Shown here: positions 3,544-26,564 of the stretch, one piece after another
How positions within the stretch are numbered: position 1 is the stretch's first letter
How the letters are laid out: every line of letters begins with the position of its first letter
NCBI GenBank assembly: GCA_964035575.1
Contig: OZ037836.1
Span: 1,488,001 to 1,552,000 of the forward strand
DNA: 64,000 bases
Direction: 5' to 3'
DNA from: Rhynchopus sp. YZ270_cl-10
Lineage: Eukaryota
Program-made: the position numbers and the translations under genes
The notes under the pieces: model-generated
The model's input: the letters and a program-made list of their open reading frames with translations, nothing else
Told to the model about the DNA's origin: nothing
Databases searched by the model: none

Positions 3544-3666
3544 GGCAAAAAAATAAGTTCTGCTCCCTCACAACTTTTTGAATAGCACAACCCGACACAG
3601 CACAACCCACCCCCACCACCACAGTTCCACCACATTATATACCCGTCACACCCTTCACACTTCAAA

Positions 3667-4617
3667 ATGATGTCTCTTCGTTCCATTGTGCGCCAGGCGA
3701 AGTTCGTGCTCTCTGCTGTGCAGGTGGGTGCCGTGCAGATGCGCAGTAAGGTGACCAAGGCAGCAAAGAAGCCTGTGGCGAAGAAGTCTGCGTCGAAGAA
3801 GGTGTCTGCCAAGAAGGTGAAGGCTGCTCTTAAGGCTGCCCTGAAGGCTCGCGCTGCCAAGAAGGCTGCACTGAAGGCTCGTGCTGCGAAGAAGGCACAG
3901 GTCAAGAAGGACAAGAAGGCTGCTTACAAGGTCATGAAAGCCGCCCTCAAGAAGATCCAGAAAAAGGCAAAGAAGGCTCGTGTTGACGAGGCAAAGCAGA
4001 TAAAAAAAACAGAGAAGGCTGCCCTGAAGGCTCGTGTTGCCGAGGCAAAGCAGGTCAAGAAAACAGAGAAGGCTGCCCTGAAGGCTCGTGTTGACGAGGT
4101 AAAGCAGGTTCAGAAGGCAAAGAAGGCTGCTCTCAGGGCTCGTGTTGCGAAGAGAAAGCAGGCTGTCAAGGCCAAGAAGGCTGCCCTCAAGGCTCGTCTG
4201 GCGAAGAAGAGACAGGCTGCCAAGGACAAGAAGGCTGCCCTCAAGGCTCGTGTCAACGAGGAGAAGGCCAAGAAGGCCAAGATCGCATCGAGCGGACCTA
4301 TCACCGCACGCACCCTGTTCTTCCAGAAGACGATGAAGGGAACGAAGCTGACCCTGAAGGATATGAACACGAAGTGGGCAGCACTCTCCGCCCAGCAGCG
4401 TGGAGTGCTCGAGGCTGAGGCAGCAAAGAACAAGGCCAAGAGGACCGACATCCGCCAGAGCCTGAAGAAGCCTGCTACCAAGTACGCGCTCTTCACGAAG
4501 AAGCACTTCCCCGCTGAGTACACGGCTGCCATGAAGTCTGGCCTTCCCCGCAAGGAGGCCTTCGCGACTGCGATACATGCTGTGTTGAAGAAGTACCGTT
4601 CCCAGCGAAGTGTCTGA
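3667..4617 (+). CDS. Lys/Ala-rich histone H1-like protein with C-terminal HMG-box-like domains and a presequence-like N-terminus (KAP-like), 316 aa
   Basis: MMSLRSIVRQAKFVLSAVQVGAVQMRS N-terminus without acidic residues; KKAALKAR repeats; GPITARTLFFQK...KWAALSAQQR and KKPATKYALFTK HMG-like motifs; strong AAG/GCT codon bias. Confidence 0.8.
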   Translation: MMSLRSIVRQAKFVLSAVQVGAVQMRSKVTKAAKKPVAKKSASKKVSAKKVKAALKAALKARAAKKAALKARAAKKAQVKKDKKAAYKVMKAALKKIQKKAKKARVDEAKQIKKTEKAALKARVAEAKQVKKTEKAALKARVDEVKQVQKAKKAALRARVAKRKQAVKAKKAALKARLAKKRQAAKDKKAALKARVNEEKAKKAKIASSGPITARTLFFQKTMKGTKLTLKDMNTKWAALSAQQRGVLEAEAAKNKAKRTDIRQSLKKPATKYALFTKKHFPAEYTAAMKSGLPRKEAFATAIHAVLKKYRSQRSV

Positions 4618-5643
4618 CGTATTGATGCAACCCTGCTGCAAGTCAAGGAGGCCTGCTGCAAGCAGTGGTTGTGTTGTTTGGTTTGATTGATATGATTCTC
4701 AGTCAAAGTTGATTTTTTTGTGTCCTCGACGCCTTCAACACCTGCGAGGAGAAGTACTTCACAAAGACCAAGGTGGACGCGATACACGACAACGTGAAAT
4801 GAGGCAAAAAATAAGTTCTGCTCCTTCTGGGGCGAGGTTTGAGCACCGGAGAACGAATACACCCTTGTATTATACAAGGCAGAAAAAAGGGGACATTTGG
4901 GCACGCATGCAGCTAAATAGTACCTATTTTCCAGAATTTCCTAACCTAAATAGACAAATTTACCTGTTTTTATTACCTTGTGGTGTGGTTTTCGCATTTT
5001 TCGCATTTTTCACATTTTCGAGGCAGGGCGCTTCATTGGTTCGTTAGTCTCAAAGGCCGCACAGTGCGGGGTATCTTCGATACTTCAAATACAAGAAAAC
5101 AACCCCCCCTGCATTTCACAACTTTTTGAATAGCACAACCCACCCCCACCACCACAGTTCCACCACATTATATACCCGTCACACCCTTCACACTTCAAAA
5201 TGATGTCTCTTCTTTCCATTGGATCAGCACACAGTCGAGGTGGGTGCAGATGACACAGTGGAGGGCTTGCGGCGGAAGGTGGCGTCTGCAATGGGGTTGC
5301 CTGAAGACAGCTTTTGCATGAGTTTCGGAGACGAAGCGATGGGAGAAGGAGCGGACATGACGCAGCTGAGTGCTGGTGACACAATCATCCTCACGAAGAC
5401 GAAGAAGTACGAAGCCATTGCAGAGCTTCATGCGTTGGGTGTGACCGACATCACAGCCGAGAAGTTGGAGAGTGTGCAGGACCCTGAGGTGGCGTGTTTG
5501 CTTCTGCAGGCGGAGGTTGCGACTGTCATTCCGAATTGGTTCTTGGCAGACACTTCGTTGACGAGACTTGATCTCAGTGCTGAGTCCATTGTGACTCACA
5601 TTGGAGACTTCTTCCTGGCCCACTGCACCTCGTTGACAAGTAT

Positions 5644-7134
5644 CGAGGGACAAAAACGTGAGGTGGCAGCCCCCCGGCATATTTGCCCTGGCGTCCCCGG
5701 ATATAATCTCTTTCTTAAGTGAACGAAGGCCACGCGTGGGATGGTTGCATTGCACTTTTGCAAACCCGGGCACATGATACTGGAGGGTCCAAAGCAACTG
5801 GAGGAGGTGTATGCTGGGCTTTTTGTGCCCTCAGGGATTTAAGCGACCCTGCACCTACTTTACGACCATGCAGAGCTTTTGCTTTTCTTGCTTTTTGTAG
5901 GTGCTAACCTGCGGCAGTGGTTTGCATCAGTTGGGTGTTCCACTCACCGCAGTTTAGATAATTAGGAGATGCCAGTCATTCGTTCCTCCCATTGGAATGA
6001 CTGGTGGTTTTATAGTTGTTCATTTCTTTTCACGCTGCCAGAGTGCGGACCTCGAACTGGCTTATATACTGACCTAGGCCACGAGCGGTGGTGTACCGCC
6101 CCCGTTCACACTACGGTACGGGTGTCGTCTTTGTTGGGTATAAGTCAGCAAATGGGATCAAGCCACTCTCTGGCACACCGTGGTGCCATCCTTCCCTTTT
6201 CAGTGGTCGCGCTAATTATGGGGAAAAATGGGGAAAAAATGGATTTCGGGTACGGAAAAACGTTCCTTGAAAAGGTTAGCTGGGGAGGCCCGGAAACCCC
6301 GTTTTGTGGCATTTCCGGGCCAATCCCGGCTTGTGGTGGGGTATATACGGAAAAATGGACAAAATTTTAGTGACTTAAATTTTCGCAAAATATGAACCCA
6401 TACTCGTAAACAAGGGTCATTTTCAGGAAAATTCGGAAAATTCCGAGATTTGGAAGCAATTTTTCTCCTGAAAATCAGTGGGTTTTCAGCCCCAAAACAT
6501 ACCGCGATTGGAATTTCCGGAATCCGTCCGCGCTGTGGTGGGGTCACTTTGCCGAAATGGCCATTTTTTTGGTTTTGGTCAAAATCCATGTGGGTAAAGA
6601 GGGCCAATGTAAATCCCACAACCAGATTTTCTCTCCCTGATCCTGACGTCTTGCAACATGAAAATGCGCGAAAACACCGGCATTTGCATTTCCGGAATTC
6701 GTCCGTTCTGTGGTGGGGTCAATTTGCCGAAATGGACAAGTTCTTGGTTTTGGTCAAAACCCGTCAGTGTAAGGTAAAGGGGGCAAGTGTTTGCCTGTAG
6801 AAACTGGAAGGGAACAGGCAGCGCCGCAGGCGCACGGTAACCAACTTTTTTTTTTTTTTTTTCCTTTTCTTTTTTCTCCTCTTTCTTTTGACTTTCCGAG
6901 CCAATTGCGTTCCACGGCGGGGTCACATGTATATGCAAGCCCACTATGTGGTGGTCTTACTCAACAATATTAGAACTTCTGGTTTCTTAATGAAATCCCC
7001 GTACTGCAAAAAAAAAAACGTTCCTACCAAAACCCCCAAAAATCCCGGGATGAGGGATGGACTTTAGCGCGAGCTCTGTCCCTTTTGCTGGGGTTTTTTT
7101 TTTTGCGGGGGTGGATCACGTTTTTCAAGTATAA
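5644..7134 (+). mobile_element. Non-coding SINE-like retro-insertion containing a nested repeat
   Basis: 15-bp TSD CTCGTTGACAAGTAT (5629-5643 / 7135-7149); 3' tail resembles that of the LINE at 15528-17392. Confidence 0.75.
6224..7105. mobile_element. Nested copy of an abundant dispersed repeat (boundaries approximate)
   Basis: ~6300-6930 matches ~39130-39770 in inverted orientation; related segments at ~8960-9400, 11650-11990, 12200-12430 and 60860-60990. Confidence 0.7.
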
Positions 7135-8841
7135 CTCGTTGACAAGTATTGATCTCTCTGGGTTGAGCAATGTGATGCAGGTTGGTCAGGGCTTCCTTGA
7201 GAACTGCGAGAGGTTAACGACCCTGGATTTGTCACCATTTAGCAACGTGACGCAGGTGGGTGCGGGCTTCCTGAAGGCCTGCAGCAGTTTAACCACCCTC
7301 GATTTGTCGCCACTCAGCAATGTGACGCAAATTCGTTTGTTCTTTGGAAGTGCGCATTTTGCTATGAACTGCACTTCGTTGACGAGCATTTACCTTTCGG
7401 GCTGCAGCAGTGTTGTGTCCGACGAAGTGAGGAACGGCAGGCTGAGTAAGCTTGTGGTTGAAACACGTCCGAAACGAAGCAGAGACGAATCCCCCGAGCA
7501 AAGCCAGAAGTGACGGAGACACGCACAATGACGACGTGGTGTGTTGGTGGCAGGGCAGCACCTCCCCGAGGTGGAGGGTCTCTGGCAGTATGTCTGCTTG
7601 CGTCCTCTGGTTCGGAGAAGAAGAGGGGCACAGTCTTGCTCACCGTGGCACAGACTACTACTTGGTGCGAGAGGAGAGCTGTGTTGAGCAAGACGTTCCA
7701 CACATTGTGTTTTTTTTTACTCTGTGCTGCAAAAGAATCCCCACAAAAACCCATGTCTTATTTATGACAATGCACCTCCCCGCCCAACCCCCTTTTTTTT
7801 CTATAATCCATCACTCTGAACTCGTTGACACCACGTGGTCTTTCACTGTCTTCTTGGTAGCTTGCACGAAGAGGTGTGAGGTGTGATGACGGTTTTCCAA
7901 CAAAAGGCTGTCCCCCACCTCCGCCTTTTCTCACCCCCTCCCGTCACGCTTCTTTTCTCATAGAACGGTGTTCTGCTGAGAGGGAGAATTGATACACCAT
8001 TTTTTGCGAAGGCGTGTTTCCCGTTGGTGCTTGGAGCAGATTCAGAATCAGAAAAGGAAGAAAAGAGGGTGAAGAGGGTGGTGTAAGATGGACACATGGA
8101 AGCAACAGATGCAGGAAAGCAGTTCCACGTCGACGTTTATAGTGGAGGGAGGACGTGTCATGGGTGAGGATGAGCTGCCGGACCAGTTCCGCCGTGATGC
8201 ATCGCATCTGGTATGACACAGCGGGATACAAGCTTTGCCACAAACATACATTTTATTAACGCGCAATTAAGGTCTCGTACAAAAATCCTGACCAAAAAAG
8301 TATTTTTAACAAGATCCTTAATCCCACTAGTGGGATTACTGGGGGGGGGCGAATAAGAGATGTGGCATCTCTTATTAGGCGAACGGACGAGCCAAAAATA
8401 AAAATTTTTTTTTGGGGAAAAAAAAGCAAAAAAACATTTTCGCCGGAGGCAAAAAAATTTTTTTGACCACTTTTTTGCCAGACCGGGTAGACAGGGTAAA
8501 ATTTCAAAATGTTTTTTCAAGATAAAACCCTGTTGCATGCAAAAAAAAAAAAAAAAAATACCCCCAAAATCTCAACCTGATCTCTTATTCGGCCCTGATC
8601 TCTTATTCACCCCTGATCTCTTATTCGCCCCCCCCCCAGTAAGGATTGTGTATAAAATAGCTGTAAAATTTTTGACAGTAAAATTAAGGAAATAATGGTG
8701 TGGCTAACTCCAAAAATAAAGTGTAATTTTTGTACTTCTTTTGTATTTTTTTTGTATACCCAAAAGGGAAGGTATATAAAACATTTTGGCGGACATTGTC
8801 CGACCCCCCCCCACCCCCCCACGGACCAGATTTTTGGCGGA

Positions 8842-8881
<40 letters not shown>

Positions 8882-9449
8882 GTCTGAAAATTGCGGACAT
8901 TTTTGGGTTTTTTCACCGGGGTTGTACACGATTTTGACCAAAGATTTATAAAAACTCGTCCATTTCGGCAAATTGACCCCACCACACAATGGACGGATTC
9001 CGAAAATGCAAATGCCAGTGTTTTCGCGTATTTTCATGGTTTCAGCATCAGGGAGAGAAAATCTGGGTAATGTGGGATTTACCTTGGCCCCTTTACCTTA
9101 CACTCATTTTGACCAAAACCAAGAACTTGGCCACTTCGGCAAATTGACCCCACCACAGCGCGGAGAGATTCCGGAAATGCCAATCGCGGTATGTTTTGGG
9201 GCTGAAAACCCACTGTTTTTCCAGGGGAAATTTTTCGATTTCAGCAGTATTTGTTGGCCGAAAATGGGCCCACCAATTAGTGACCGGGCTCATATTTTCA
9301 AAAATTTAAGTGGTCAAAAAATTGTCCAATTTTCAACATCGACCCCACCACTTTCTGGACGGATTCCGGAAATGCCAAAAAACTGTGTTTTGGGTCACGA
9401 ATCCACGCCATGTCACCCAAAAACCAGCGGGAAAAAAAAAAAAAAAAAA

Positions 9450-10256
9450 AAACAAGTAATTGCTATCGGAAAAAAAACGGGGTGTGATGTGGAACTCCAT
9501 CCTGTAGAAATAATCTACAACACGCCCAGCATTCTGCTCTTCTGCAAGTATGCTAACGCTCTTCTGCCAGACCCACTGGGACGCCAGCATCTGAACGTTC
9601 AAACAGTGGGGCTCTCCTCTTCGTCCAGCACCATGTGCTCGATCGCGTTGTTGGACGTCGGCTCGGCAGGCTCGGCGTGTTCCAGCTCGTTTTTGTCCAC
9701 AGGCTCCCCACATTGTCGTCGTCGTTGGAGCAGTGCGGAAGGAACACAGAATGCACAGACTACAACACATCGATCACACCAGGCGCATCAGCACCTCCAG
9801 CAAATCACCAGGATGCTACGGTGGTTTCGAAAATCGCGCGGAGTTTTCCACAGCACACCCCGTTTTTTCTTAGCAATTACTTGTCCTTGTTGTTATTGTT
9901 GTTTTCAACCACCTTCCTTCAACCCTTGTAGGATCAGTTGTTATTTTTTTCGCGAAAACATGAAATTACACATTTCAAGAGAACAAATTAAAAAGGGTCC
10001 TTATTTGCATTTTTGGGCTCCGCCCGTGCAGTGGTGGGGTCAATCTCGAAAATTGGACAATTTATTGACCACTTAAATTTTGAGAAATATGAGCCCGGTT
10101 CCTTATACGTGGGGCCCATTTTTGGCTAAAATTTTCCTCAAAATCTGGTTTTGTAAAATTGACCCTTTACTCCCCCCCCACATCGATTTCAATACTATAC
10201 CTTACTTCACCTACGGTTGCCCTTACAGGGGGGTGAAGGAAGGTAAGTTGAAAATG
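9450..10256. repeat. Dispersed repeat; second copy at ~44150-46627, where it is interrupted by the Tc1 element
   Basis: Near-identical sequence starting AACAAGTAATTGCTATCGG; contains the empty Tc1 site CCTTATACGTGGGGCCC. Confidence 0.85.
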
Positions 10257-10398
10257 TCCGACCCCCCCCCACCCCCCGCCTCCAAAAAATTATGCGGAAA
10301 TTGTCCGCCAAAATGTTTTATATACCTTCCCAAAAAGGGGGGTTTTTTTATTTTTGGTACCAATTCGTACTTTCCCAATCGCCCCAAGTCATGGCTCA

Positions 10399-10910
10399 AA
10401 AGTTCCTGGCGAAGCCACGGTACGCAACATTTCTGAAAAATGTCGACATAAATTGGCACTGTCGTTGGTAATTATCGTCAGTTCCGTTAAATTTTACCTA
10501 CGTATTTTGCTAGAACGAAAGTTTCTGGCGAAGCCACGGTACGCAACATTTCTGAAAAATGTCGACATAAATTGGCACTGTCGTTGGTAATTATCGTCAG
10601 TTCCGTTAAATTTTACCTACGTATTTTGCTAGAACGAAAGTTTCTGGCGAAGCCACGGTACGCAACATTTCTGAAAAATGTCGACATAAATTGGCACTGT
10701 CGTTGGTAATTATCGTCAGTTCCGTTAAATTTTACCTACGTATTTTGCTAGAACGAAAGTTTCTGGCGAAGCCACGGTACGCAACATTTCTGAAAAATGT
10801 CGACATAAATTGGCACTGTCGTTGGTAATTATCGTCAGTTCCGTTAAATTTTACCTACGTATTTTGCTAGAACGAAAGTTTCTGGCGAAGCCACGGTGCG
10901 CAACATTTCA
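10399..10910. repeat. 119-bp tandem repeat, ~4.3 copies
   Basis: Unit AAAGTTTCTGGCGAAGCCACGGTACGC...GCTAGAACG repeats at a 119-bp period. Confidence 0.95.
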
Positions 10911-13039
10911 AAAAATTGCGCTTATATTTGCACATTTGTGCTGAACTATGTCATGGGAAAGGGTGGGTTGCAATCTTGCGCCGCAGGCGCACGGTACGCT
11001 ACTTTTTTCGTTGGCCATGCTGCATGCTTCCTTCTTCTTTCTCACTCCTCATTGGGTTCTACGAGCTCCGTCCGTAAAATGGTGGGGTCACAACATGCAG
11101 CAAAGTTCGCAGCTATGCAAACTGCCCCCACGTTTACTTTGCACTTTGCCCTCAGTGGCCAAGTGCTGACCATATTTTACACTAAACCTGAAAATGCCCT
11201 GTAAAAACTGACACATGCATTTTAGGTCAAAAATACTCATTTCTCAGCGCAAAGTGACCCCATCACAGCACGCACGGACTCCCGAGAATCGAGAAAAAAA
11301 TTTTCCCCCAATTTGTTGGGGGCCAAAAAAGAAAAATTTCCCCCCGACCCCCCGACTCCGACCCCCCAAAAAGTTTATACAGGGAAATAATTTTTCGCAA
11401 AAAACACCCCAAAAATAAAGTGTAATTTTTGTACTTCTTTTGTAGTTGTTTTGTGCTGTTTTTGTACTGGATTTAGCCACACCAAATAATACAAAAAATC
11501 ACAAAGATCCATACAAATCCACACAATGGATTTAATTGCATATGTGGCCTGGTCAGGGGTGTCGCTAATTTTGGGGAAATTTTTGAAAAATCTGAAATCG
11601 GGGTGCAATTTTTTTTTTTTTTACGTGGGGATTTTTTTTCCATTACCAGGGGGCGAAAAAACAGTGTTTTGTGGCATTTCCGAGCCAATCCCAGGCTGTG
11701 GTGGGGGATATACGGAAAAATGGACAAACTTTTAGTGACTTAAATTTTCACAAAATATGAACCCATACTCTTAAACATGGGTCATTTTCAGGTCTGAAAA
11801 CCCAAATTCAGATGAAATTGTGGTGTTTTTGACATTACTGAGAACAGTAGGTAGCGCCGCAGGCGCACGGTACCCAACTTTTGTCTTTTCTTTTTCCCTT
11901 TTCTCTGCGTTCTTTTGAATGTGCGAGCCGATTGCTCTCCACGGTGGGGTCACATGTGTGCGCTAAAATACGCTAAAGTACCCTTACACTGAAGTATGAG
12001 ATTCTCTGGTTTTAGCAAGGAAACCCTTGCAAGCATGTTCCCAGATCACGAAAAGAGGGGAGGCGTTTTTGGGCGTTTTTGTTGATTGCATCGTCCGATG
12101 CGGTGCAATTGCAGAAAGTGATGGGGTCATTTTGGAAAAATGGACGAGTTTTCGGTATTTAAGTTTTCACCATTTTTTTTATTCCTGTGCACTTTTCGAG
12201 ACTGCCGATTCTCGTAAACAAGGGTCATGTTCAAGTCCGAAAACACAGCTTCAGATGAAATTGTGGTGTTCTTGACTGAGAACGGTAGCGCCGCAGGCGC
12301 ACGGTACCCAACTTTTGTCTTTTTGTCTTTTCCTTTTTCTCTGCGTTCTTTTGATTGCGCGAGCCGATTGCTCTCCACGGTGGGGTCACATGTGTGCGCA
12401 AAAACACGCTATGGTACCTTTACTAAGGAAACCCTGGTTTGCAAAAAAAAGGGGTAAGGCAGGGTAAGGAAATCCCACCCAAAAAATAAATCTTCGCGGG
12501 GTGAGGGCGGCACCTGGTGATTTTCCCTGACCCCCAAAAACCTCGTTTTTGGAACGTTCTGACACAACCGAGTTCACGGTGGCCTCTCACTTAAAAAAAG
12601 AACAAGTTGTTAACACATTAAACCCACCCTGTATTAGGTGCAATTTTTTTTTTCCTACACAGATTTTACTAGGGGTGCAAATTTTTTTTTTGGTTTTGAA
12701 AAAGTCGGGACCCTGGACCCGAATTAGCGACACCCCTGGTTTTATATGATACGAGAAATTTTTTGATAAGTGTTGCATTTTGCCCCAAAGTGTGACGCGA
12801 GCGTGACGGTATTTTGAGGGGGGTTTTCACAAAAAATCGATTTTTTTTAGTCAGGAAAGTCTCTGTAGAGGTTTTCTGGCGGTTTATTGGGATATTTGGG
12901 TGATCCCCAGGGCGATTTGCGGCCAGGTACGCCCATTTTAGTGGATTTCTTCACCTAAATTTCAAAAAAATGGTTTTGGACACCAAATCCTTAAGGAATT
13001 CCTTCTACGTGGACCCCCCTAATCCCCCCCTCCCCACAG

Positions 13040-13207
13040 CCAGCCAGAGGGTCACACCCGTGCCTACGCGAACGGGAAGCAGTGCAGCGTTGCATAGAAC
13101 AGCGTCTTGCAAGCAAATGCCAGCCCATCCTCGACGCCTTCAACACCTGCGAGGAGAAGTACTTCACAAAGACCAAGGTGGACGCGATACACGACAACGT
13201 GAAATGA
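13040..13207 (+). CDS. Twin CX9C last exon, copy 2
   Basis: Same acceptor context and frame as 3376-3543, with one K>E change. Confidence 0.7.
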   Translation, partial: PARGSHPCLREREAVQRCIEQRLASKCQPILDAFNTCEEKYFTKTKVDAIHDNVK

Positions 13208-13330
13208 GGCAAAAAAATAAGTTCTGCTCCCTCACAACTTTTTGAATAGCACAACCCGACACAGCACAACCCACCCCCACCACCACAGTTCCACCACATT
13301 ATATACCCGTCACACCCTTCACACTTCAAA

Positions 13331-14491
13331 ATGATGTCTCTTCGTTCCATTGTGCTCCAGGCGAAGTTCGTGCTCTCTGCTGTGCAGCTGGGTGCCGTGC
13401 AGATGCGCAGCAAGGTGACCAAGGCAGCAAAGAAGCCTGTGGCGAAGAAGTCTGCGTCGAAGAAGGTGTCTGCCAAGAAGGTGAAGGCTGCTCTTAAGGC
13501 TGCCCTGAAGGCTCTCTCTGCCAAGAAGGCTGCGAAGAAGGCACAGGCTGTCAAGGTGAAGAAGGCTGCTCTTAAGGCTGCCCTGAAGGCTCGCGCTGCC
13601 AAGAAGGCTGCGAAGAAGGCACAGGTTGTCAAGGCCAAGAAGGCTGCCCTGAAGGCTCGTGCTGCGAAGAAGGCACAGGTCAAGAAGGACAAGAAGGCTG
13701 CTTACAAGGTCATGAAAGCCGCCCTCAAGAAGATCCAGAAAAAGGCAAAGAAGGCTCGTGTTGACGAGGCAAAGCAGATAAAAAAAACAGAGAAGGCTGC
13801 CCTGAAGGCTCGTGTTGCCGAGGCAAAGCAGATAAAAAAAACAGAGAAGGCTGCCCTGAAGGCTCGTGTTGCCGAGGCAAAGCAGATCAAAAAAACAGAG
13901 AAGGCTCGTGTTGCCGAGGCAAAGCAGGTCAAGAAAACAGAGAAGGCTGCCCTGAAGGCTCGTGTTGACGAGGTAAAGCAGGTTCAGAAGGCAAAGAAGG
14001 CTGCTCTCAGGGCTCGTGTTGCGAAGAGAAAGCAGGCTGTCAAGGCCAAGAAGGCTGCCCTCAAGGCTCGTCTGGCGAAGAAGAGACAGGCTGCCAAGGA
14101 CAAGAAGGCTGCCCTCAAGGCTCGTGTCAACGAGGAGAAGGCCAAGAAGGCCAAGATCGCATCGAGCGGACCTATCACCGCACGCACCCTGTTCTTCCAG
14201 AAGACGATGAAGGGAACGAAGCTGACCCTGAAGGATATGAACACGAAGTGGGCAGCACTCTCCGCCCAGCAGCGTGGAGTGCTCGAGGCTGAGGCAGCAA
14301 AGAACAAGGCCAAGAGGACCGACATCCGCCAGAGCCTGAAGAAGCCTGCTACCAAGTACGCGCTCTTCACGAAGAAGCACTTCCCCGCTGAGTACACGGC
14401 TGCCATGAAGTCTGGCCTTCCCCGCAAGGAGGCCTTCGCGACTGCGATACATGCTGTGTTGAAGAAGTACCGTTCCCAGCGAAGTGTCTGA
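13331..14491 (+). CDS. KAP-like H1/HMG protein, copy 2, 386 aa
   Basis: Near-identical to 3667-4617 with extra in-frame Lys/Ala repeat units (+70 aa). Confidence 0.8.
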   Translation: MMSLRSIVLQAKFVLSAVQLGAVQMRSKVTKAAKKPVAKKSASKKVSAKKVKAALKAALKALSAKKAAKKAQAVKVKKAALKAALKARAAKKAAKKAQVVKAKKAALKARAAKKAQVKKDKKAAYKVMKAALKKIQKKAKKARVDEAKQIKKTEKAALKARVAEAKQIKKTEKAALKARVAEAKQIKKTEKARVAEAKQVKKTEKAALKARVDEVKQVQKAKKAALRARVAKRKQAVKAKKAALKARLAKKRQAAKDKKAALKARVNEEKAKKAKIASSGPITARTLFFQKTMKGTKLTLKDMNTKWAALSAQQRGVLEAEAAKNKAKRTDIRQSLKKPATKYALFTKKHFPAEYTAAMKSGLPRKEAFATAIHAVLKKYRSQRSV

Positions 14492-15527
14492 CGTATTGAT
14501 GCAACCCTGCTGCAAGTCAAGGAGGCCTGCTGCAAGCAGTGGTTGTGTTGTTTGGTTTGATTGATATGATTCTCAGTCAAAGTTGATTTTTTTGTGTCCT
14601 CGACGCCTTCAACACCTGCGAGGAGAAGTACTTCACAAAGACCAAGGTGGACGCGATACACGACAACGTGAAATGAGGCAAAAAATAAGTTCTGCTCCTT
14701 CTGGGGCGAGGTTTGAGCACCGGAGAACGAATACACCCTTGTATTATACAAGGCAGAAAAAAGGGGACATTTGGGCACGCATGCGGCTAAATAGTACCTA
14801 TTTTCCAGAATTTCCTAACCTAAGTAGACAAATTTACCTGTTTTTATTACCTTGTGGTGTGGTTTCCGCATTTTTCACATTTTTTACATTTTCGAGGCAG
14901 GGCGCTTCATTGGTTCGTTAGTCTCAAAGGCCGCACAGTGCGGAGTATCTTCGATACTTCAAATACAAGAAAACAACCCCCCTGCATTTCACAACTTTTT
15001 GAATAGCACAACCCGACACAGCACAACCCACCCCCACCACCACAGTTCCACCTCATTATATACCCGTCACACCCTTCACACTTCAAAATGATGTCTCTTC
15101 GTTCCATTGGATCAGCACACAGTCGAGGTGGGTGAAGATGACACAGTGGAGGGCTTGCGGCGGAAGGTGGCGTCTGCAATGGGGTTGCCTGAAGACAGCT
15201 TTTGCATGAGTTTCGGAGACGAAGCGCTGGGAGAAGGAGCGGACATGACGCAGCTGAGTGCTGGTGACAATCATCCTCACGAAGACGAAGAAGTAAGAAG
15301 CCATTGCAGAGCTTCATGCGTTGGGTGTGACCGACATCACAGCCGAGAAGTTGGAGAGTGTGGAGGATCCTGAGGTGGCGTGTTTGCTTCTGCAGGCGGA
15401 GGTTGCGACTATCATTCCGGATTGGTTCTTGTCATGCACTTCGTTGACGAGACTTGATCTCAGTGCTGAGTCCATTGTGACTCACATCGGAGACAGCTTC
15501 CTGGCCCACTGCACCTCGTTGACAAGT

Positions 15528-17392
15528 GTCGGGGAAGACCTTTTCTGGGCGATGAAGACGTGGCTCGCTGCACTGCGTTGGCCTGATGGAGCGGTACGGA
15601 TGGAAATGGGACGATTTCCACTGCTGGACGACGCATACCGGGATGAGGGTGAGAATCCAGCAGTATGAGAGCGGCAAGTGGCTGCACGAGCTGCGGGTGG
15701 GCATTCGCGCGAAAGTATTCCGAGCGACGGCGGAACGCAGAACAGGGATGAAGGGGATCGAGAGCGGCGTGGACCGGCAGCTGACGAACGAGCTGTGGAG
15801 AGACGCTTCGACGGACAGGTACGTGGCAGGTACCATTCGGGGCACTTTGTCAGGCTCGACGGTGGTGGGTGTGCACTTGCAGGAATGGGGAAAAGACGTG
15901 TCGTCGCTGGGCAGGTACTGCGACATGGCGATTGAGACGAGGGTGCACACGTGGTGGTGGTGCCCGCGGTGGGACTCGCACCGGGGAGAAGATATCGACG
16001 AGCTCCGGATCACGCTCATGAACGCACCTCCATGCTTCATGAATCACGGCCTGGTGCCCGAGGTCTTCTTGCAGGAGTTAAGCGCGAAAGAGAAGGCGAA
16101 GCTGGTGAAGCGTGTGCAGGGGATGATGGCGGCAATCATCATTGCGCGCCATGCGTACGATCGGGAAATCGGGCGCCGCGACAAGAAGAACGCGCCGAAG
16201 CTGGGTGGGATGTCGATGTTTCCTTGGGGCTGGAAGCCGCCGCAGGAGGCAGAGCTGGAGACGTTCGACCCGCTTGAGCGTGTACTGTGGAAAAGTGGAC
16301 ATATCCACAGCGACAAATGGACGGAAGACCTTTTCTGGGCGATGAAGACGTGGCTCGCTGCACTGCGTTGGCCTGATGGCACAACGCCCCCCATCACGCA
16401 GATAGAGCTCATGTTGGATTTCGAAGTCTTCTCGGGGCTGGATGTGCCGGGGGTATCAGTGGGGAAAAGAGCTGAATTTTTCGGCAGTATGTTGCGACAG
16501 GCAGAGGTGATGGCGGGTGGTAGAACGGTGTGGAAAGGTGTTAGGTTGACTTCGGTGCGACATCTGGGGGAGCTGGGGGCCGGAACCCACGTGGGGTATT
16601 CTGTGAGACCTGTGCTGACGTATTCGGCAGAGGTTGAGCAGTACCTGCGTGACATGCGGCTGAAGGCGACCGAGAAGCAAGCAGCAACAGTGGCGCAGCA
16701 GAAGAAGAAGAAGAAGGGAACGGGATGGGGTGACTGCACGGTGACTCACTCTGCTGCCGACGAACGCTCCGTAAGGGGCGAACAATGGAAGCAGATGGCA
16801 GAGGCACAGGTGCAGGCAGAGACGAGACGGAAGGAGTCAGCGCTTGCCGCGGTCGCGGCAGCGCAGAGAATACGTGCGGGAGCGAGGAGGAGACAGACGC
16901 CGGCTGTCCGGGTAACGGCGAAAAGGAAGCAGGGGAACATGCAGGTGTGCGTCACACACAGTAGGTTGCGATGCGAGGACTGCACCCTCAACCGCAACAA
17001 CATCAACAACTGTTGTGCGATGCACCACTGCGATGCGAACATTTTGGAGGCATGCGATGAGGCAGTAGACTCGTGTGAACAGCACAGTATATCTGCGTGC
17101 GGGCAGTGTGCGGGGGCAGCGACACCGATGACGGCGAAGCAGTGCTGTGGCAAGCACCACAACTGCACAGGACACGACAGAGGAGCTTGCGATATTTGTG
17201 TGGCCAGTGAGAGGAAGAAGAAGAACCGTGACGGACGCCCGATGATTGCTTCGCCGCAATGCAAGAAGGGTCACCACGACGTGAATCAGACGCGTCTGGT
17301 GTTTCGATAACGATGGTGTACACGTGGTGCCATCCTCATAATTAGGCTGCTGGTCGGCTAATTGTGGGGGTGGGTCACGTTAACAAGTTTAA
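15528..17392 (+). mobile_element. 5'-truncated non-LTR retrotransposon (family A)
   Basis: 13-bp TSD CTCGTTGACAAGT (15515-15527 / 17393-17405); ORF with a degenerate post-RT zinc knuckle (ETRVHTWWWCPRW); short 3' UTR without poly-A. Confidence 0.85.
15586..17310 (+). CDS. C-terminal part of a LINE ORF (zinc knuckle, W-L-x-x-L-R-W/ELxxDFE block, three Cys/His repeats)
   Basis: Colinear motif similarity with 48764-50743; RT core absent (truncated). Confidence 0.75.
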   Translation: MERYGWKWDDFHCWTTHTGMRVRIQQYESGKWLHELRVGIRAKVFRATAERRTGMKGIESGVDRQLTNELWRDASTDRYVAGTIRGTLSGSTVVGVHLQEWGKDVSSLGRYCDMAIETRVHTWWWCPRWDSHRGEDIDELRITLMNAPPCFMNHGLVPEVFLQELSAKEKAKLVKRVQGMMAAIIIARHAYDREIGRRDKKNAPKLGGMSMFPWGWKPPQEAELETFDPLERVLWKSGHIHSDKWTEDLFWAMKTWLAALRWPDGTTPPITQIELMLDFEVFSGLDVPGVSVGKRAEFFGSMLRQAEVMAGGRTVWKGVRLTSVRHLGELGAGTHVGYSVRPVLTYSAEVEQYLRDMRLKATEKQAATVAQQKKKKKGTGWGDCTVTHSAADERSVRGEQWKQMAEAQVQAETRRKESALAAVAAAQRIRAGARRRQTPAVRVTAKRKQGNMQVCVTHSRLRCEDCTLNRNNINNCCAMHHCDANILEACDEAVDSCEQHSISACGQCAGAATPMTAKQCCGKHHNCTGHDRGACDICVASERKKKNRDGRPMIASPQCKKGHHDVNQTRLVFR

Positions 17393-17906
17393 CTCGTTGA
17401 CAAGTCTGGACCTCTCTGGGTTGAGCAATGTGACGGAGGTTGGCGCAGGCTTCCTTTACAACTGCAGCAGTTTAAGGACCCTGGATTTGTCGCCACTCAG
17501 CAATGTGACGCATATTCGTTTGTTCTTTGGAAGTGCGCATTTTGCTGGGAACTGCACTTCGTTGGCGAGCATTTACCTTTCCGGCTGCAGCAGTGTTGTG
17601 TCCGACGAAGTGAGGGCGAGAAGTTGAGTAAGCTTGTGGTTGAAACACGTCCGAAACGAATCAGAGACGAATCCCCCGAGCAAAGCCAGAAGTGACAGAG
17701 ACACGCACAATGACGACGTGGTATGTTGGTGGCAGGGCAGCACCTCCCCGAGGTGGAGGGTCTCTGGCAGTGTGTCTGCTTGCGTCCTCTGGTTCGGAGA
17801 AGAAGAGGGGCACAGTCTTGCTCACCGTGGCACAGACTACTACTTGGTGCGAGAGGAGAGCTGTGCTGAGCAAGACGTTCCACACATTGTGTTATGTTAC
17901 GCTGTG

Positions 17907-18371: not shown

Positions 18372-19845
18372 TTATGTTACTCTGTGCTGCAAAAGAATCC
18401 CCACAAAAACCCATGTCTTATTCATTACAACGTACCTCCCCCCCCCCTTTTTTTCTGTAATCCATCACTCTGAACTCGTTGACACCACGTGGTCTTTCAC
18501 TGTCTTCTTGGTAGCTTTGCACGAAGAGGTGTGAGGTGTGATGACGGAGGCGAGTGGCTTCGTGTGATATGATGCAGGTTTCTTCTCCTCAGATGAGGAG
18601 TTCTGAGGACCACGGGGAGGGGAGGGTCGACAAGCGAAAACGTTTCATCTCCCGCCTTGTTGTCTGCTTAGCAGATGGCTTCACTGATGGATTCAATTTC
18701 TTCGGGGGCAGCCCTTTCCAGTGGATGACGGCGAGGGCCGTTTCCGTTTCCGTGAAGGGCGCATTGTTGCGACAGGCCTGTGTCTCTCAGGTGTCCAGAG
18801 TGTCGAGAGCACGACGACACACAGGTGTCGCTGGAACTGCAGCATTCGTTTGTGACGGAGGTGAATGGGAAAGAGTGAGAAGAGAAGCCGGAATCTGTGA
18901 ATAGGACAAAGAGTGTGCAAGAGTATGCCACGATGTGGAAGCGGTGCTTGGCCGAGCTGCCGCAGGTGAAGACTGAGCGTATGGTACCTTGCGCACCCTT
19001 CCACGACATAGTCGTGAAGTCGAGCATGCTTGTCGGAGGCATCCTGTGAGATGCCTCCACCCCTTCAAGGAGTGACTACTCCATGCAGATGAGGCAGATG
19101 ACGGTGAAGCTGGCAGGAAGGCATGGGCGACACTCCGTCCGAACGTTGATTGACTTAATGTGTCATCATGTCGGGGAGGAGGGAGGAGGAGATCAAGCGC
19201 AGTGTCCCCTCCATCAGCACGATTGGCCGAGGGGATATGCGTGTAGGAGAGGCACCTCTATTTGCGGTGACCGTTATTATGTCTGCTATTAGGGCGATGG
19301 GCCAGACCACGACGGGAGCCTTTTCTTTCCTCTTCACATAACACCCCCCCTCCCCTCCCCTCACCTCTCACCTCACACCCTCCCCACCTCAGGGAGACAC
19401 AAACACACATACTCTTTCCACCCCCCCCTCTCACACACTCTATCCCCTCCCCTCCCCTCTCACCTCACACCCTCCCCACCTCAGGGAGACACAAACACAC
19501 ATACTCTTTCCACCCCCCCCTCTCACACACTCTATCCCCTCCCCTCCCCTCTCACCTCACACCCTCCCCACCTCAGGGAGACACAAACACACATACTCTT
19601 TCCACCCCCCCCTCTCACACACTCTATCCCCTCCCCTCACCTCTCACCTCACACCCTCCCCACCTCAGGGAGACACAAACACACATACTCTTTCCACCCC
19701 CCCCTCTCACACACTCTATCCCCTCCCCTCACCTCTCACCTCACACCCTCCCCACCTCAGGGAGACACAAACACACATACTCTTTCCACCCCCCCCCCTC
19801 TCACACACTCTATCCCCTCCCCTCACCTCTCACCTCACACCCTCC

Positions 19846-19952
19846 CATACTGTAAACTTGTTTAAGTAGCTTTGCTACGCCAGGGGGGTCTCTAGGATAA
19901 AATATGTCGCGAATAAGAAAGTCTTTTCCCCCTCCCCCTTTTTCGCTATGGA

Positions 19953-19988
<36 letters not shown>

Positions 19989-20217
19989 GCGTACCATTTC
20001 TCTATTGCTACGTGCCCTTTTGTTGTTATTGCTTACCACTTGCTTCGGCAAGGTTGGTTGAGGACGTTACGGGGAAATCTCACCACCACCTTCATCAGTA
20101 TTTTGTGTTGTGTTTCCCCAGTCTCGCCCTCATGACCACATACCTCGCTGCCGTTTTTTCGGCGCTATTAACCAAAAAAGACCTTTCCCCCCATATTTTA
20201 TCCTAAAGAGACCCCCC
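19846..20217 (+). mobile_element. Solo A-B terminal repeat of the YR retrotransposon
   Basis: Matches 25340-25690 apart from homopolymer lengths; same insertion point in a satellite unit. Confidence 0.9.
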
Positions 20218-20756
20218 ACCTCAGGGAGACACAAACACACATACTCTTTCCACCCCCCCCTCTCACACACTCTATCCCCTCCCCTCCCCTCTCACCTCAC
20301 ACCCTCCCCACCTCAGGGAGACACAAACACACATACTCTTTCCACCCCCCCCTCTCACACACTCTATCCCCTCCCCTCACCTCTCACCTCACACCCTCCC
20401 CACCTCAGGGAGACACAAACACACATACTCTTTCCACCCCCCCCTCTCACACACTCTATCCCCTCCCCTCACCTCTCACCTCACACCCTCCATACTGTAA
20501 ACTTGTTTAAGTAGCTTTGCTACGCCAGGGGGGTCTCTAGGATAAAATATGTCGCGAATAAGAAAGTCTTTTCCCCCTCCCCCTTTTTCGCTATGGATAT
20601 ATTTTTTTTTTGCGCGTACCATTTCTCTATTGCTACGTGCCCTTTTGTTGTTATTGCTTACCACTTGCTTCGGCAAGGTTGGTTGAGGACGTTACGGGGA
20701 AATCTCACCACCACCTTCATCAGTATTTTGTGTTGTGTTTCCCCAGTCTCGCCCTC

Positions 20757-21875
20757 ATGACCACTATGGATGAAGCGCTGGAGTCGCTCAGGGCCAAGAG
20801 TGGGTCACGGTCGTTCCGGATGTCGCGAGATGTTGCGAACATCGTTGCGGATTCGTCGGACGCCGTGAAGTCTGCACTGGGAAACGCCTGGGAGTCCGTC
20901 ACGGGCGCGCTGTGCGTCCGGACGTTTGAGGATTTCCGGGGGGAGAAGGAAGATTTCGGGGAGGAACACGTGCGCGCTGCGTTGGCACGCGTCACGGGAA
21001 CTGTGCCCTCGGACTGGACAGATGTTCCCTGTCTGCGTCTTCTTTTGCTCCTTGGAGTCCTCCGGAAGAGGCTGGGAGACGAGCTTTTTGGAGCTGTCGT
21101 GAGGGAGGGCGACGCCGAGCTGCCTCACTCCCCCGAAGTGCCTACCCCTCCCGCCTCCGTGAACACCGTTGCTGAAGCGTTTGCGGCGGAGAGCGTGAGA
21201 GACGCAGAGAGGGACGAGGAGCGCGAACGCCTCACCGTGCACTTCACCCCTCGTTCCAACACACAACACCCTGCCCCCCCCGCCCCCCCCCTCCCTACAC
21301 ATGAGGACAAGTCAGAGGATGAGAAGAAGGATGCGAGCATCGGGGATAGCGAGAGCGAAGGCGAGGCTTCCGCCCCTACCAAGAAGCTCACAGTGGACAA
21401 TGTACTGCTCGTCCCGGACAAATGGCACGAGCTCTCGGAGGTACAGCTGCTTACCCTCCGCAACCGCCTCACCGAGATGTACCTGCCAAGGGAGCAAGGG
21501 GACGCCAGGGATGCCATCAAGGCGAGCATGGATATCATGTTCAGCATCTTGGAAGGTTCCCCACCGAACGACATCCTGTCCGGTCTCCTCAACTCTGTGA
21601 TGCACCTAGGCATCCGGGCGAAGGAAGGATGGGAGGCGGCCCAGGCCTTCTCCAAATCCATGACCGCCTCAAACGGGGTCTCCTCGGACAGGAAAGCCGC
21701 CCTGAAGGCAGCAGCAGGGGTTGGACAGAAGAGAAAGGCTCCGACATCTCATGCACAGGGAGGAAGGGCACCTAAGCGTCCGAGAACAGAAAACAAGCCG
21801 CGGCACTCCAGAGGAGGTGCCAACCAACGCCCGAACTGGTTTTTTCGGAACCATTCCTACGCCCCTCGCAGGTAG
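20757..21875 (+). CDS. Gag-like ORF1 of the YR retrotransposon
   Basis: First ORF after A1 (MTTMDEALES...), helical body with a basic C-terminus; assigned by position. Confidence 0.7.
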   Translation: MTTMDEALESLRAKSGSRSFRMSRDVANIVADSSDAVKSALGNAWESVTGALCVRTFEDFRGEKEDFGEEHVRAALARVTGTVPSDWTDVPCLRLLLLLGVLRKRLGDELFGAVVREGDAELPHSPEVPTPPASVNTVAEAFAAESVRDAERDEERERLTVHFTPRSNTQHPAPPAPPLPTHEDKSEDEKKDASIGDSESEGEASAPTKKLTVDNVLLVPDKWHELSEVQLLTLRNRLTEMYLPREQGDARDAIKASMDIMFSILEGSPPNDILSGLLNSVMHLGIRAKEGWEAAQAFSKSMTASNGVSSDRKAALKAAAGVGQKRKAPTSHAQGGRAPKRPRTENKPRHSRGGANQRPNWFFRNHSYAPRR

Positions 21876-21903
21876 TAACTACGGCACCACTGACCAGAGA
21901 GAG

Positions 21904-24900
21904 ATGGAAGTGGGAGAGCGAACCAGCGGCTTCAGTGCACCTGGGACAAAAAACATCGGCTGCTTCGTTGCGCCTGAGAAAAAACAAAATCAAAATCAAA
22001 AACAAGAACAAAAACAACAACAACAACAACAACAACAACAAAGACAAAAACAATTTGGCAGCTTCGCGCCTGATAAAAGACAAAGACAAAAAGGTCAACA
22101 ATTCGGCAGCTTTGCGCCCAAACAACAAGGCAGCTTTGCGCCCAAAAGAGAACAACAAGAAGGCAGCTTTGCGCCAAAACAAGAACAACAAGGCAGCTTT
22201 GCGCCCAGACAGCCTACACGTTGGCCTGCACCAAGCGGAAGAAGAGCCGGCACCACTACGATGGGGCGTATGCCCTCCTCCAAATCTGTCTCCACCACCT
22301 TCCCCAACGACAAGATTCGCATCGCGGCTACCACGAGCGAAAGGAGGTCCCCGCAATTTGGTCGACCACAACTTTTTCTCCATCAGGGATGGAAAGGCCC
22401 TGGGGAGGGCGATGCACGAGAGGATTCCGTGGGACGAACTGCACCTGCACGCGACTGCCCCAACGACCCAAGGAGAGGTGCAACGAGTGTGGAGCGATTT
22501 CCTGAGGGGCTGCGCAACTGCTCCTCATCTGAGCAAGGAAGTGCATCTTCTGCAGTTCGCGCACCGCAGGCTACGTACGGCGGCCCCCCGCTCCGTAGTA
22601 GGCTACATGTGCAAGATCCTGCGAGAGTGCAAGCGGCGAGGGATCAGAGGGGTCGCAACGGTCCGTGTATTGGGGGCAAAGAAGGCGCTCAGAAGACTAT
22701 CTGCGGCGGTACGTCCGAGACAGGCGCCACCTCTTCCTCCCTCCGATGTCATCACCGGCGTGAACAAGCTTGTCAAGGCCGGAGACCAACATGCCGCCGC
22801 TTTAGCTGCGATGTCCTACATGACGAGGTCCCGCGTCCCAGACCTACGTTTTCTGAACAAATCGGATTGGCGCGAGATTCATTGTGCAGGGGAGTCGCCG
22901 ATCAAGGTAGGAGCAGAACTATTTGCGAAGGAGAAGGGCGTCCTGGTGGCTCGCCCCCCCATCTATCTTCCTCCGGGTCCTCTAACAGCAATCGCGGTGT
23001 CTTTTTGGAGAACTGTGCAACACCACAACACCGTGATGGGGGGCAACACACGAGAGTTCGAGTCGCTGATGGAGCGCATTCGCAAGGTCATGCCAAAGGG
23101 GACGTGGATGCACTCATTCAAGAGAGGAGCGGCGCAAGCGATTCAACTGCAGGGGGCATCAAACGAAAGAATGCGTCTACTCCTGCGACACAGCAACGTG
23201 GGGCAGACAGCGGCATACCTGAACGCGACGAACGTATCTGCACGGATGAGGGAGACGGAGGAGCTGAAGACCCTGCAGTTGCTGCACTGATCAACGGGGC
23301 GAAATATCCCCTACCAGTCTGCGACGAGGGGATAGAGGTGCCTGACCCCGACTACTTCCCCGTGGGGCTCTGCAAGCCCCCCCCCATCATAAAGAAAAGC
23401 CTTGATTCTTTCCCCACGGGCCTAATCGTGTTGGAGGCCGTGCGCAGGATGGCTGAGGAGGTAGGGAAGGACTCTGATTTCCTGCAGTGGTGTACTTCCG
23501 GACGTAAGATTGCAGATGCTTTATCTGGACCGATCCCGCTCCCTGGCCCGAAGTCAAAAATCCCAAATTCTTTTGTGTCGGAGTGCGTGAAGTCGAAGGT
23601 ATTGATTCCTCTTGCTCGGACTGACCGCAAGAAGGGCGCAGTTTGCGTTTTTGACGTCCCGAAGAGTGACCCGCAACTGCGGAGGCTAGTGGTGGATGGA
23701 CGTCCTGTTAACAAAAGGATCGCCAAGCCACAGCCTTTCTCCCTGGTCAACCCCCACAAGCTTGCAACAATGCTTAAGGTGTCAAACGCACGCTTTGCTC
23801 AACAGACCGACCTAAAGGGGTATTTCCACCAGTTCCCCCTCTCACCCGAGGTGTCCAAATATTTTTGTGTGCAGGCTGGGGGACGTTGGTTTAGATGGGC
23901 GCGTCTACCCATGGGTTTTGCGTACGCGCCGTACATCGCGCAGAACACTTCTGAGATTTTTCTTGGCCCCATTCTGAACAAATGGGGTGTTGTGTACCTT
24001 GACGACATTTTTGTGTGGGGTGCATATCCTGCTGAGGCGGCGGCTAAGACGGCTTTTGTGCGTGACCGTCTGCAGCGTGCGGGTGCGGAGGTAAACGTGA
24101 AGAAGTCCATGGCTAAACCGGCTGAAGTCGTTGACTTCATCGGCATAGTGTGGAACCTTCCGTTGCAATCTTTTTCGTTACCAGAGGAGTGGAGGTTAAA
24201 GTCATCACGCATCATTCATGACACCCTGAAGCTGGAGACCTGTTCCCTACGAAAATGGTGGAAGGTATGCGGACTTGTGTTCAGAGCCGCGTACGTCCTG
24301 GATTTCAAGCTATGTTTTCTTTGCCACACTTTGCAGTTCGTGCGCAGTAAAGCACAACTCGTCTCCCGCAAGAAGCTGTCATGGGATGACGACGTGGCCA
24401 TGCACGTTGCGACGAAGGAGGAGTTGGCAGCTTTCGCTGTGGCGAACATTCAGACTTGTGTGACGGTTCCCTTCCCCTCTCCGCCCCCGATACATTTCTC
24501 CATCGCAGTATGGACCGACGCGTCCACGACAGGCTGGGGCTGGGTGTCGAAGCTGCAGAACTCTTTTTCTGGCGTCGAAAGGCACGGACGGTGGGAATCG
24601 ACGCACACCTCTGGAGAGATGTTTGTGTTGGAGCTGCGTGCGGCTGAGAAGGGCATGGCAGCAGCTTTGGAGGGCGGCCACACAGCTATCGTTCTTTTCG
24701 TGGACAACGAGGCGGTGAAGTATGTCCTCAGGAGAGGCCACTCCCGCACCCGCCTGGGCAACTCCATTCTGAGGAGGATGAGCACGCGACTCTCCGCAGC
24801 GAAGGCACACCTTCACATCAGGTGGATTAAGACCGACGAGATGCCCGCCGACTGGGGGTCCCGACAGAAGCTGGCAGGTCAGGGCGTGAGTTTGAGTCCC

Positions 24901-24966: not shown

Positions 24967-26564
24967 ATGTTTTTTCTATTTTCTAGGGTGTGGCTTTGTT
25001 TTTTCTGGTCGTCGGAGTGCGAATGGTCGAGTCAAGGTTGTTGTTTTTGATGTTTCGTGCGTGTGTTTCGCGTGGGGCTGTTTTTTACCTACGTTACGTT
25101 TTTTCGTGCCATATTTTTTGTGTTCGGAGTTGTTTTCTGTCATGAGACAGTATTGGAGATTATGCTTCTCACGTGGAGAACGCTACCTCAGTGTGGCGTC
25201 AAAGTTGGGCACAGGTCAGGGCACGAGCGACGGGTGTTTCCCCAGTCTCGCCCTCATGACCACATACCTCGCTGCCGTTTTTTCGGCGCTATTAACCAAA
25301 AAAGACCTTTCCCCCCATATTTTATCCTAAAGAGACCCCCATACTGTAAACTTGTTTAAGTAGCTTTGCTACGCCAGGGGGGTCTCTAGGATAAAATATG
25401 TCGCGAATAAGAAAGTCTTTTCCCCCTCCCCCTTTTTCGCTATGGATATATTTTTTTTGCGCGTACCATTTCTCTATTGCTACGTGCCCTTTTGTTGTTA
25501 TTGCTTACCACTTGCTTCGGCAAGGTTGGTTGAGGACGTTACGGGGAAATCTCACCACCACCTTCATCAGTATTTTGTGTTGTGTTTCCCCAGTCTCGCC
25601 CTCATGACCACATACCTCGCTGCCGTTTTTTCGGCGCTATTAACCAAAAAAGACCTTTCCCCCCATATTTTATCCTAAAGAGACCCCCCCACCTCAGGGA
25701 GACACAAACACACATACTCTTTCCACCCCCCCCTCTCACACACTCTATCCCCTCCCCTCACCTCTCACCTCACACCCTCCCCACCTCAGGGAGACACAAA
25801 CACACATACTCTTTCCACCCCCCCCTCTCACACACTCTATCCCCTCCCCTCCCCTCTCACCTCACACCCTCCCCACCTCAGGGAGACACAAACACACATA
25901 CTCTTTCCACCCCCCCCTCTCACACACTCTATCCCCTCCCCTCACCTCTCACCTCACACCCTCCCCACCTCAGGGAGACACAAACACACATACTCTTTCC
26001 ACCCCCCCCTCTCACACACTCTATTCCCTCCCCTCCCCTCTCACCTCACACCCTCCCCACCTCAGGGAGACACAAACACACATACTCTTTCCACCCCCCC
26101 CTCTCACACACTCTATCCCCTCCCCTCCCCTCTCACCTCACACCCTCCCCACCTCAGGGAGACACAAACACACATACTCTTTCCACCCCCCCCTCTCACA
26201 CACTCTATCCCCTCCCCTCCCCTCTCACCTCACACCCTCCCCACCTCAGGGAGACACAAACACACATACTCTTTCCACCCCCCCCCTCTCACACACTCTA
26301 TCCCCTCCCCTCACCTCTCACCTCACACCCTCCCCACCTCAGGGAGACACAAACACACATACTCTTTCCACCCCCCCCTCTCACACACTCTATTCCCTCC
26401 CCTCCCCTCTCACCTCACACCCTCCCCACCTCAGGGAGACACAAACACACATACTCTTTCCACCCCCCCCTCTCACACACTCTATCCCCTCCCCTCCCCT
26501 CTCACCTCACACCCTCCCCACCTCAGGGAGACACAAACACACATACTCTTTCCACCCCCCCCCC

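Follow-up and report, generated by a model that had tools for sequence, protein, structure and literature searches.

In Trypanosoma the protein-coding RHS genes contain a hot spot for the ingi/RIME elements, which are predicted to disrupt more than half of the family (PMC7563717). The L1Tc/NARTc pair has a relative site specificity and carries a ribozyme and a 2A peptide (PMC5814959); about half of the L1Tc copies occur in association with RHS genes, and another element, TcTREZO, is linked to MASP (PMC6967402). [quoted passage not shown] For strictly specific long interspersed nuclear elements (LINEs), the targets that have been listed comprise genes for RNA, exons of the spliced leader, transposons, microsatellites and telomeres (PMC4640811, PMC3706591). 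Here we describe a stretch of 64,000 nucleotides from Rhynchopus sp. YZ270_cl-10 (contig OZ037836.1, positions 1,488,001 to 1,552,000; hereafter the window), which contains four copies of a gene with a ubiquitin-like part and leucine-rich repeats (UBL-LRR), three of them struck by LINEs or by a short non-coding element. This gene family is a retroelement hot spot with at least three fixed sites, where the specificity is relaxed and not strict. Its closest precedent is ingi/RIME in the trypanosome RHS genes, and the lack of precedent implied by the first-pass annotation of this DNA does not hold, since these elements already occupy a hot spot in a protein-coding family (PMC7563717). In the open literature, including PMC12278014, nothing was found on LINEs targeting diplonemid LRR genes, with supplements and repeat libraries outside the search and an earlier description therefore possible.

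We consider it probable that one register of the LRR-coding repeat, in a family of several hundred genes, has been struck many times and in independent events by a LINE family with an apurinic/apyrimidinic endonuclease (APE) and by its non-coding relative of 602 nt; the endonuclease likely prefers this motif without being restricted to it. What is shown is the shared 3' junction and orientation, the target site duplications (TSDs), the stem-loop tail, the recurrence in paralogs, the variable 5' ends and the existence of off-target copies.

Inserts 1 and 2 both terminate immediately 5' of CTCGTTGACAAGT in the same orientation (between 7134 and 7135, and between 17392 and 17393), as had been noticed at first reading. 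Copy 1 consists of a 5' part at 5223-5646 (+ strand, as are all gene copies, inserts and insert parts located below except the nested transposon of insert 1, which has no strand assigned), in which the native start is absent and the start sequence of a neighbouring gene stands in place of the first codons, and of a 3' part at 7135-7513; insert 1 lies between them at 5647-7134. Copy 2 is frameshifted in its 5' part (15111-15527), and insert 2, a 5'-truncated LINE at 15528-17392, separates this from the 3' part at 17393-17695. The same site is empty in copy 3 (3' part at 50812-51526, site at 51052) and in the intact copy 4 (57262-58173, site at 57693), as had been stated, yet copy 3 holds another LINE about 240 bp upstream. 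In Pfam, copy 4 matched LRR_5/LRR_8, and its ubiquitin match was weak and below the cut-off. Of the two TSD lengths first proposed, 13 bp is perfect for insert 2 (15515-15527 and 17393-17405), while the 15 bp of insert 1 are the perfect part of a duplication (5629-5646 and 7135-7152) that likely measures 18 bp with one mismatch, thus the element starts at 5647. Judging from 8 differences over 922 bp upstream, copies 1 and 2 are recent duplicates, and their LRR parts are more diverged. A Lys/Ala-rich basic protein (3586-4617 and 13331-14491), for which HMG-box leads were weak only (Atlas score 0.77), was duplicated along with them.

Insert 1 is a non-coding retroposon of 602 nt into which a miniature inverted-repeat transposable element (MITE) of 878 bp is nested (6201-7078). 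The MITE has imperfect terminal inverted repeats (TIRs; 15-nt arms, 87% complementary) and a TSD of 8 bp (6193-6200 and 7079-7086), from the length of which we take it to be hAT-like; its body is 78-93% alike to further repeats of the window. A related second MITE at 11554-12738 has a perfect 17-bp TIR and no clear TSD. The nested MITE interrupts insert 1's LINE-type tail, a stem-loop at the 3' end, and leaves a 5' half (6172-6200) and a 3' half (7087-7134) of it. When the MITE is removed, this tail and that of insert 2 (17317-17392) are identical in 57 of 85 columns (counted on the printed alignment), the alignment scores 54, where none of 2000 shuffles scored above 20, and a long stem-loop is predicted for both. 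The diverged 3' tail reported earlier as common to the two inserts was thus confirmed except for its middle piece, TGGTCG(C)GCTAATT, which in insert 1 is the left end of the MITE and hence a coincidental match. Insert 1 had no match to the LINE proteins; Rfam gave matches at chance level only and ARAGORN no tRNA, so nothing points to a tRNA head, and the tail pattern had 0 matches in metagenome and viral contigs. At its 5' end there is a candidate HDV-like ribozyme (5647-5733): the first 87 nt fit a relaxed version of a descriptor that was drawn up from the general topology of such ribozymes, permitting one unpaired base (0 of 500 shuffles), with an oversized L3 of 18 nt; the strict descriptor did not detect it, and Rfam found none. 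Elsewhere in the window, a non-coding sequence at 62894-62985 resembles insert 1 in a motif of 39 nt (85%) and in the very last bases at the 3' end, but it is without the stem-loop and is flanked by non-LRR sequence.

The open reading frame (ORF) of insert 2 runs to 17310 (584 residues) and is 97% identical in amino acids to P0137 and 57% identical, over 98% of its length, to P0002, a protein of 1588 aa; at its 5' end the insert repeats 57 nt of its interior sequence (15533-15589 equals 16323-16379). The endonuclease type, which the first-pass annotation had proposed to read from a full-length element, is given by the full-length relative P0002: besides a CCHC motif it carries an APE domain (PF03372) and a reverse transcriptase (RT, PF00078), both above cut-off, and the same two domains are above cut-off in P0382. 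The cluster of P0002 has 33 members, and among the 15 listed, 10 are full-length with pairwise differences of 1-38 residues. The insert-2 family proper has three members; the longest, P0376 (1347 aa, with RT), begins after the APE region, so that its APE would be expected from the relative P0002. With the APE located 5' of the RT, the TSD, the fixed 3' end and the variable 5' truncation, the elements are APE-type non-LTR retrotransposons by their sequence features, and the presence of the APE sets them apart from the types with a restriction-like endonuclease (RLE; R2, CRE/SLACS, NeSL). The C-terminal part, when modelled (pLDDT 82, pTM 0.49), matched nothing at E<=0.001; human L1 ORF2p came closest, though weakly, the fold search returned no nuclease fold and the ESM Atlas no usable match. 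Among PDB matches, L1 and R2 were similar in score. A domain search of P0002, P0376, P0382 and P0383 for RNase_H and RVT_3 found none, and RNase H is present in some distant relatives. Related LINEs carry source names of Rhynchopus euleeides and Lacrimia lanifica, which makes a diplonemid host likely. The LINE ORFs (16900-17300 in the window, and homologs) end in about three Cys/His-rich repeats without a Pfam match, possibly a nucleic-acid-binding module.

Recurrence was examined in translated UBL-LRR ORFs, apparently of the same assembly as the window. The family comprises 507 clusters at E<=1e-20, all 120 listed being from ENA except the self row. ORFs of 84-270 aa were searched with scoring on the UBL part only, so that the breakpoints were not selected, and among 84 candidates there were 69 matches, 17 whole and 52 truncated. 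By hand, P0353 was taken out of site C and placed under 'other', its motif being a false one within the linker, and the self rows P0287 and P0316 were removed; P0288, P0294 and P0308 were counted as misses though their peptides put them at sites C, B and A, respectively. Three sites, each with 12 breaks, account for 36 of the 50 non-self breaks, against 0.165 expected for the site windows: site A after LTKTKK, site B after xERLxx, and site C, the site of inserts 1 and 2, after xLTx[LIV] of an LRR repeat. Within the repeats 12 of 19 breaks are at site C against 0.153 expected (p 3e-6), p values which are optimistic since sites A and B and the extension of C to all repeats were defined post hoc.

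Several of these breaks could be decoded. Five other proteins (P0295, P0306, P0337, P0346, P0357) end at site C with EGTKT-stop, a reading of insert 1's own 5' end with one G added, thus insert 1 is 5'-complete and recurrent; it is non-coding and multicopy, with a fixed 5' end, a LINE-derived 3' tail and a TSD, the other copies being known only from this five-residue read-through. A second foreign end, EGYTQ..., is found in 9 proteins after differing repeats, in one of them in another frame, and is at most compatible with the HDV-like descriptor (6 of 200 shuffles). P0317 breaks at site C and continues with 52 of 52 residues frame-compatible with the ORF of the insert-2 family from residue 553 (20-23 in 8 shuffles), and on this peptide evidence it is a second insertion of that family at C with a different 5' end. 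Introns behind the site-C breaks were considered and rejected, since insert 1 does not open with GT and is flanked by a TSD, and GT is likewise missing from the beginning of those EGYTQ and site-B junctions that were decoded; this exclusion does not extend to the GAINV and GVLPSTSTR ends.

The same data bear on the possibility that a single old insertion preceded the gene duplication and that gene conversion and unequal crossing-over afterwards substituted it or carried it to further paralogs. Exchange among paralogs does occur, as copies 1 and 2, duplicated recently, are more diverged in their LRR parts, and the two sides of the TSD of insert 2 diverge after 13 bp, which could also be the case in a recombinant. 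However, the inserts have in common just about 76 nt at about 67%, insert 1 being without a LINE coding match; identical foreign peptides stand behind diverged hosts (68-95% identical for EGTKT, 73-94% for EGYTQ) and behind different repeats; and P0317 suggests a distinct 5' truncation point. A single clade was rejected for the EGTKT rows (p-AU of the approximately unbiased test 1e-4; 6 rows including self) as well as for the EGYTQ rows (p-AU 1.4e-3; 8 rows), both on quick trees of 142 columns, which conversion can blur. We regard such an origin as the least probable of the explanations considered. The independence of the insertions, proposed earlier for a LINE and its non-coding parasite, therefore stands, as other paralogs are struck at the same position and a single origin is rejected; the dependence of insert 1 on the LINE of insert 2 does not follow, since tails about two-thirds alike would also allow a sister family to serve.

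Site A in copy 3 holds insert 3 (48763-50811), a 5'-truncated LINE of a second family, with a TSD of 19 bp (48744-48762 and 50812-50830), the element mentioned above as lying about 240 bp upstream of site C. Its protein is 29% identical to the LINE of insert 2 (E 1e-28). P0300, P0333, P0344 and P0375, all broken at site A, map to differing points of insert 3, and P0355 reads into its ORF by eye. P0117 and P0308 bear its tail peptide; P0308 is a tail-only insertion of this family at A, by which the protein is lengthened in frame by about 20 residues without closure of the reading frame. When 14 tails were compared, those at site A matched the insert-3 family only; none of them resembled the insert-2 family, and no tail at site C resembled the insert-3 family. 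The full-length ORFs of the insert-3 family, P0382 and P0383 (1666 aa), have a 2A-like DVEENPGP directly 5' of the APE domain, a motif absent from the ORF of P0002. A second LINE family likely behaves in this way too, with a site of its own in these genes. Site B is empty in the copies of the window; in more than 20 paralog ORFs (P0307, P0351, P0361-P0373 and others) a near-identical element follows xERLxx there, for the most part from a single fixed start, with truncation in some. P0362, P0366 and P0368 were apparently struck at both A and B.

How far the target is specific was assessed with contigs of four sequencing runs (X1, X2, X5 and X6), aligned to the tail of insert 2 plus 16 target bases; the results apply to the tail of insert 2. 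In a single X6 contig (depth 2) the tail was joined in register to a diverged LRR repeat. Several observations weigh against our interpretation. Between the final bin of the tail and the bins of the target, the summed depth fell from 122 to 0 in X1, from 1877 to 165 in X2 and from 1817 to 281 in X5; loose ends behind the tail were present in at least 7 (X1), at least 9 (X2) and at least 4 (X5) contigs, none of those listed being readable as LRR; and in one contig of X1 the tail equals that of insert 2 and is followed by 276 nt of non-target DNA. Furthermore, sites A and B and the extension of C to all repeats were set after the data had been seen, recurrence was read from translated ORF ends and not from DNA, with the 3' junctions outside view, the ribozyme fit was obtained only after relaxing the descriptor, and the likeness of tail and target is clear for insert 2 only (228 of 5000 shuffles for insert 1, 663 of 5000 for insert 3). 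Depth does not measure copy number, X1 may be the source of the window, short contigs that enter repeated DNA are sampled too rarely, and any later repeats would be lost to clipping; the share of on-target copies is therefore not derivable from the contigs, but off-target copies do exist. The consensus of the loose ends behind 17380 aligns with the end of the insert-2 tail and is not taken as an LRR target; more likely a diverged subfamily has its own 3' end there, with mixed flanks beyond it.

The first-pass annotation had proposed a strictly sequence-specific LINE/SINE (short interspersed nuclear element) pair, comparable to R1 or R2 in ribosomal DNA (rDNA). The junction is indeed fixed and recurs in many paralogs, and among the 15 listed members of the P0002 family (of 33), 11 are by eye on contigs apparently also carrying UBL-LRR genes; in the same comparison it was 1 of 3 in cluster P0139 and 0 of 5 in cluster P0140, which may belong to another assembly. 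Short contigs into high-copy LRR DNA may also be under-sampled, the window's own junction being missing from X1. On the other hand, the target sequence varies among repeats, and with the insert-2-identical tail of X1 and many further non-target loose ends it is evident that many tail copies of the insert-2 type continue into unrelated DNA. Strict sequence specificity is therefore unsupported and, for the insert-2 tail, already largely refuted: it is not the case that nearly all copies lie at one target, in a contig sample biased against repeated flanks. We hold this explanation to be very improbable.

A passive hot spot would be the opposite view, in which a preference for 3-4 bases (roughly C^CTC, or microhomology to the end of the tail) suffices and insertions survive in hundreds of dispensable, clustered copies. 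It agrees with the large size of the family (507 clusters) and with the common off-target flanks, several of which among the listed contigs open with CTC or CTCG; in the window, sites A and C are both C^CTC. Nevertheless, the repeats beyond the first have ^CAG and not ^CTC and are still struck in register, and the two LINE families do not share sites A and C although both carry CTC. This explanation is in our opinion unlikely.

For the preferred interpretation, a relaxed preference for the repeat register, the following course can be proposed. The endonuclease would nick the bottom strand at about TGCNN^CNNNTTRAC, a pattern with 12 occurrences in the window, 10 of them within LRR repeats. The RT would bind the 3' stem-loop and prime at the nick (target-primed reverse transcription), possibly assisted by pairing of the target-like tail end with the target, and a second nick would follow 17-18 nt downstream. 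The final bases of the insert-2 tail equal the target at 10 of 11 positions (19 of 5000 shuffles), a likeness that may help priming or may be the trace of a captured target; as a general rule this likeness was rejected, inserts 1 and 3 failing the shuffle test. The candidate 5' HDV-like ribozyme would release the RNA from the host co-transcript and thereby yield the fixed 5' end, and the short element would borrow the protein of the insert-2 LINE or of a sister LINE. Going further, it is conceivable, if rather doubtful, that several retroelement families split one hypervariable protein-coding family into private fixed sites in the manner of R1/R2 in rDNA, that one of them reads the LRR register, partly via its target-like RNA 3' end, so that each new repeat is a new target, and that the elements drive LRR turnover and recombination.

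Compared with the described systems, the locus resembles ingi/RIME of T. brucei and L1Tc/NARTc of T. cruzi in that an APE LINE and a short partner strike one site in a multicopy protein-coding family and leave pseudogenes (PMC7563717). As in L1Tc, the specificity is relative rather than absolute (PMC5814959, PMC6967402), and to the 5' ribozyme and the 2A peptide described there correspond, at most, the candidate ribozyme of insert 1 and a 2A-like motif in the insert-3 family only. Unlike ingi/L1Tc, no RNase H was found in P0002, P0376 and P0382, and the stem-loop tail is without poly(A), with a TSD of about 18 bp; unlike ingi/RIME, the target is a register present in each 75-bp repeat, and at least two LINE families use separate sites in one gene family. 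The system thus appears to work like the RHS hot spot, with a LINE lineage that would differ by lacking the RNase H feature. With the target-specific LINEs of the R1 and Tx1 clades it shares the APE, the fixed 3' junction, the variable 5' end and the multicopy target, and, as with R1/R2 in 28S rDNA, distinct families occupy distinct sites in one gene (PMC4640811, PMC3706591); unlike the targets listed in these sources, the target here is a variable protein-coding repeat and the specificity is relaxed. TcTREZO in the MASP pseudogenes is likewise a site-specific retroelement tied to a large euglenozoan protein-coding family, yet by its description it is a composite of genomic pieces (PMC5814959, PMC6967402).

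It is therefore a second, apparently independent case, beside the trypanosome RHS genes, of a large protein-coding family serving as a safe haven for LINEs; what differs is another LINE lineage, a target set by the repeat register and a second LINE family with its own site in the same genes. Since sister APE LINE families prefer different sites in the same genes, the protein or RNA part that sets target choice becomes directly testable. The findings also bear on the turnover of large LRR families in these protists and on annotation, where many short 'UBL' genes are insertion pseudogenes.

The window contains further mobile and repeated sequences. A retroelement at 20562-24966, which we take to be DIRS/TATE-like, has overlapping ORFs with an RVT_1 match, one ORF being tyrosine recombinase-like by eye, and is flanked by 92-bp tandem arrays (19351-20491, 25684-26562, 27654-28159). 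An intact-looking Tc1/mariner transposase ORF lies at 44909-45973 (DDE_3, HTH_Tnp_Tc3_2), and its bordering sequences recur at 9432-10254. The 3' fragment of another LINE type, with RNase H, is located at 55316-56653, and tandem arrays at 10399-10933 and 59117-59811 have units of about 119 bp and of 14/56 bp, respectively.

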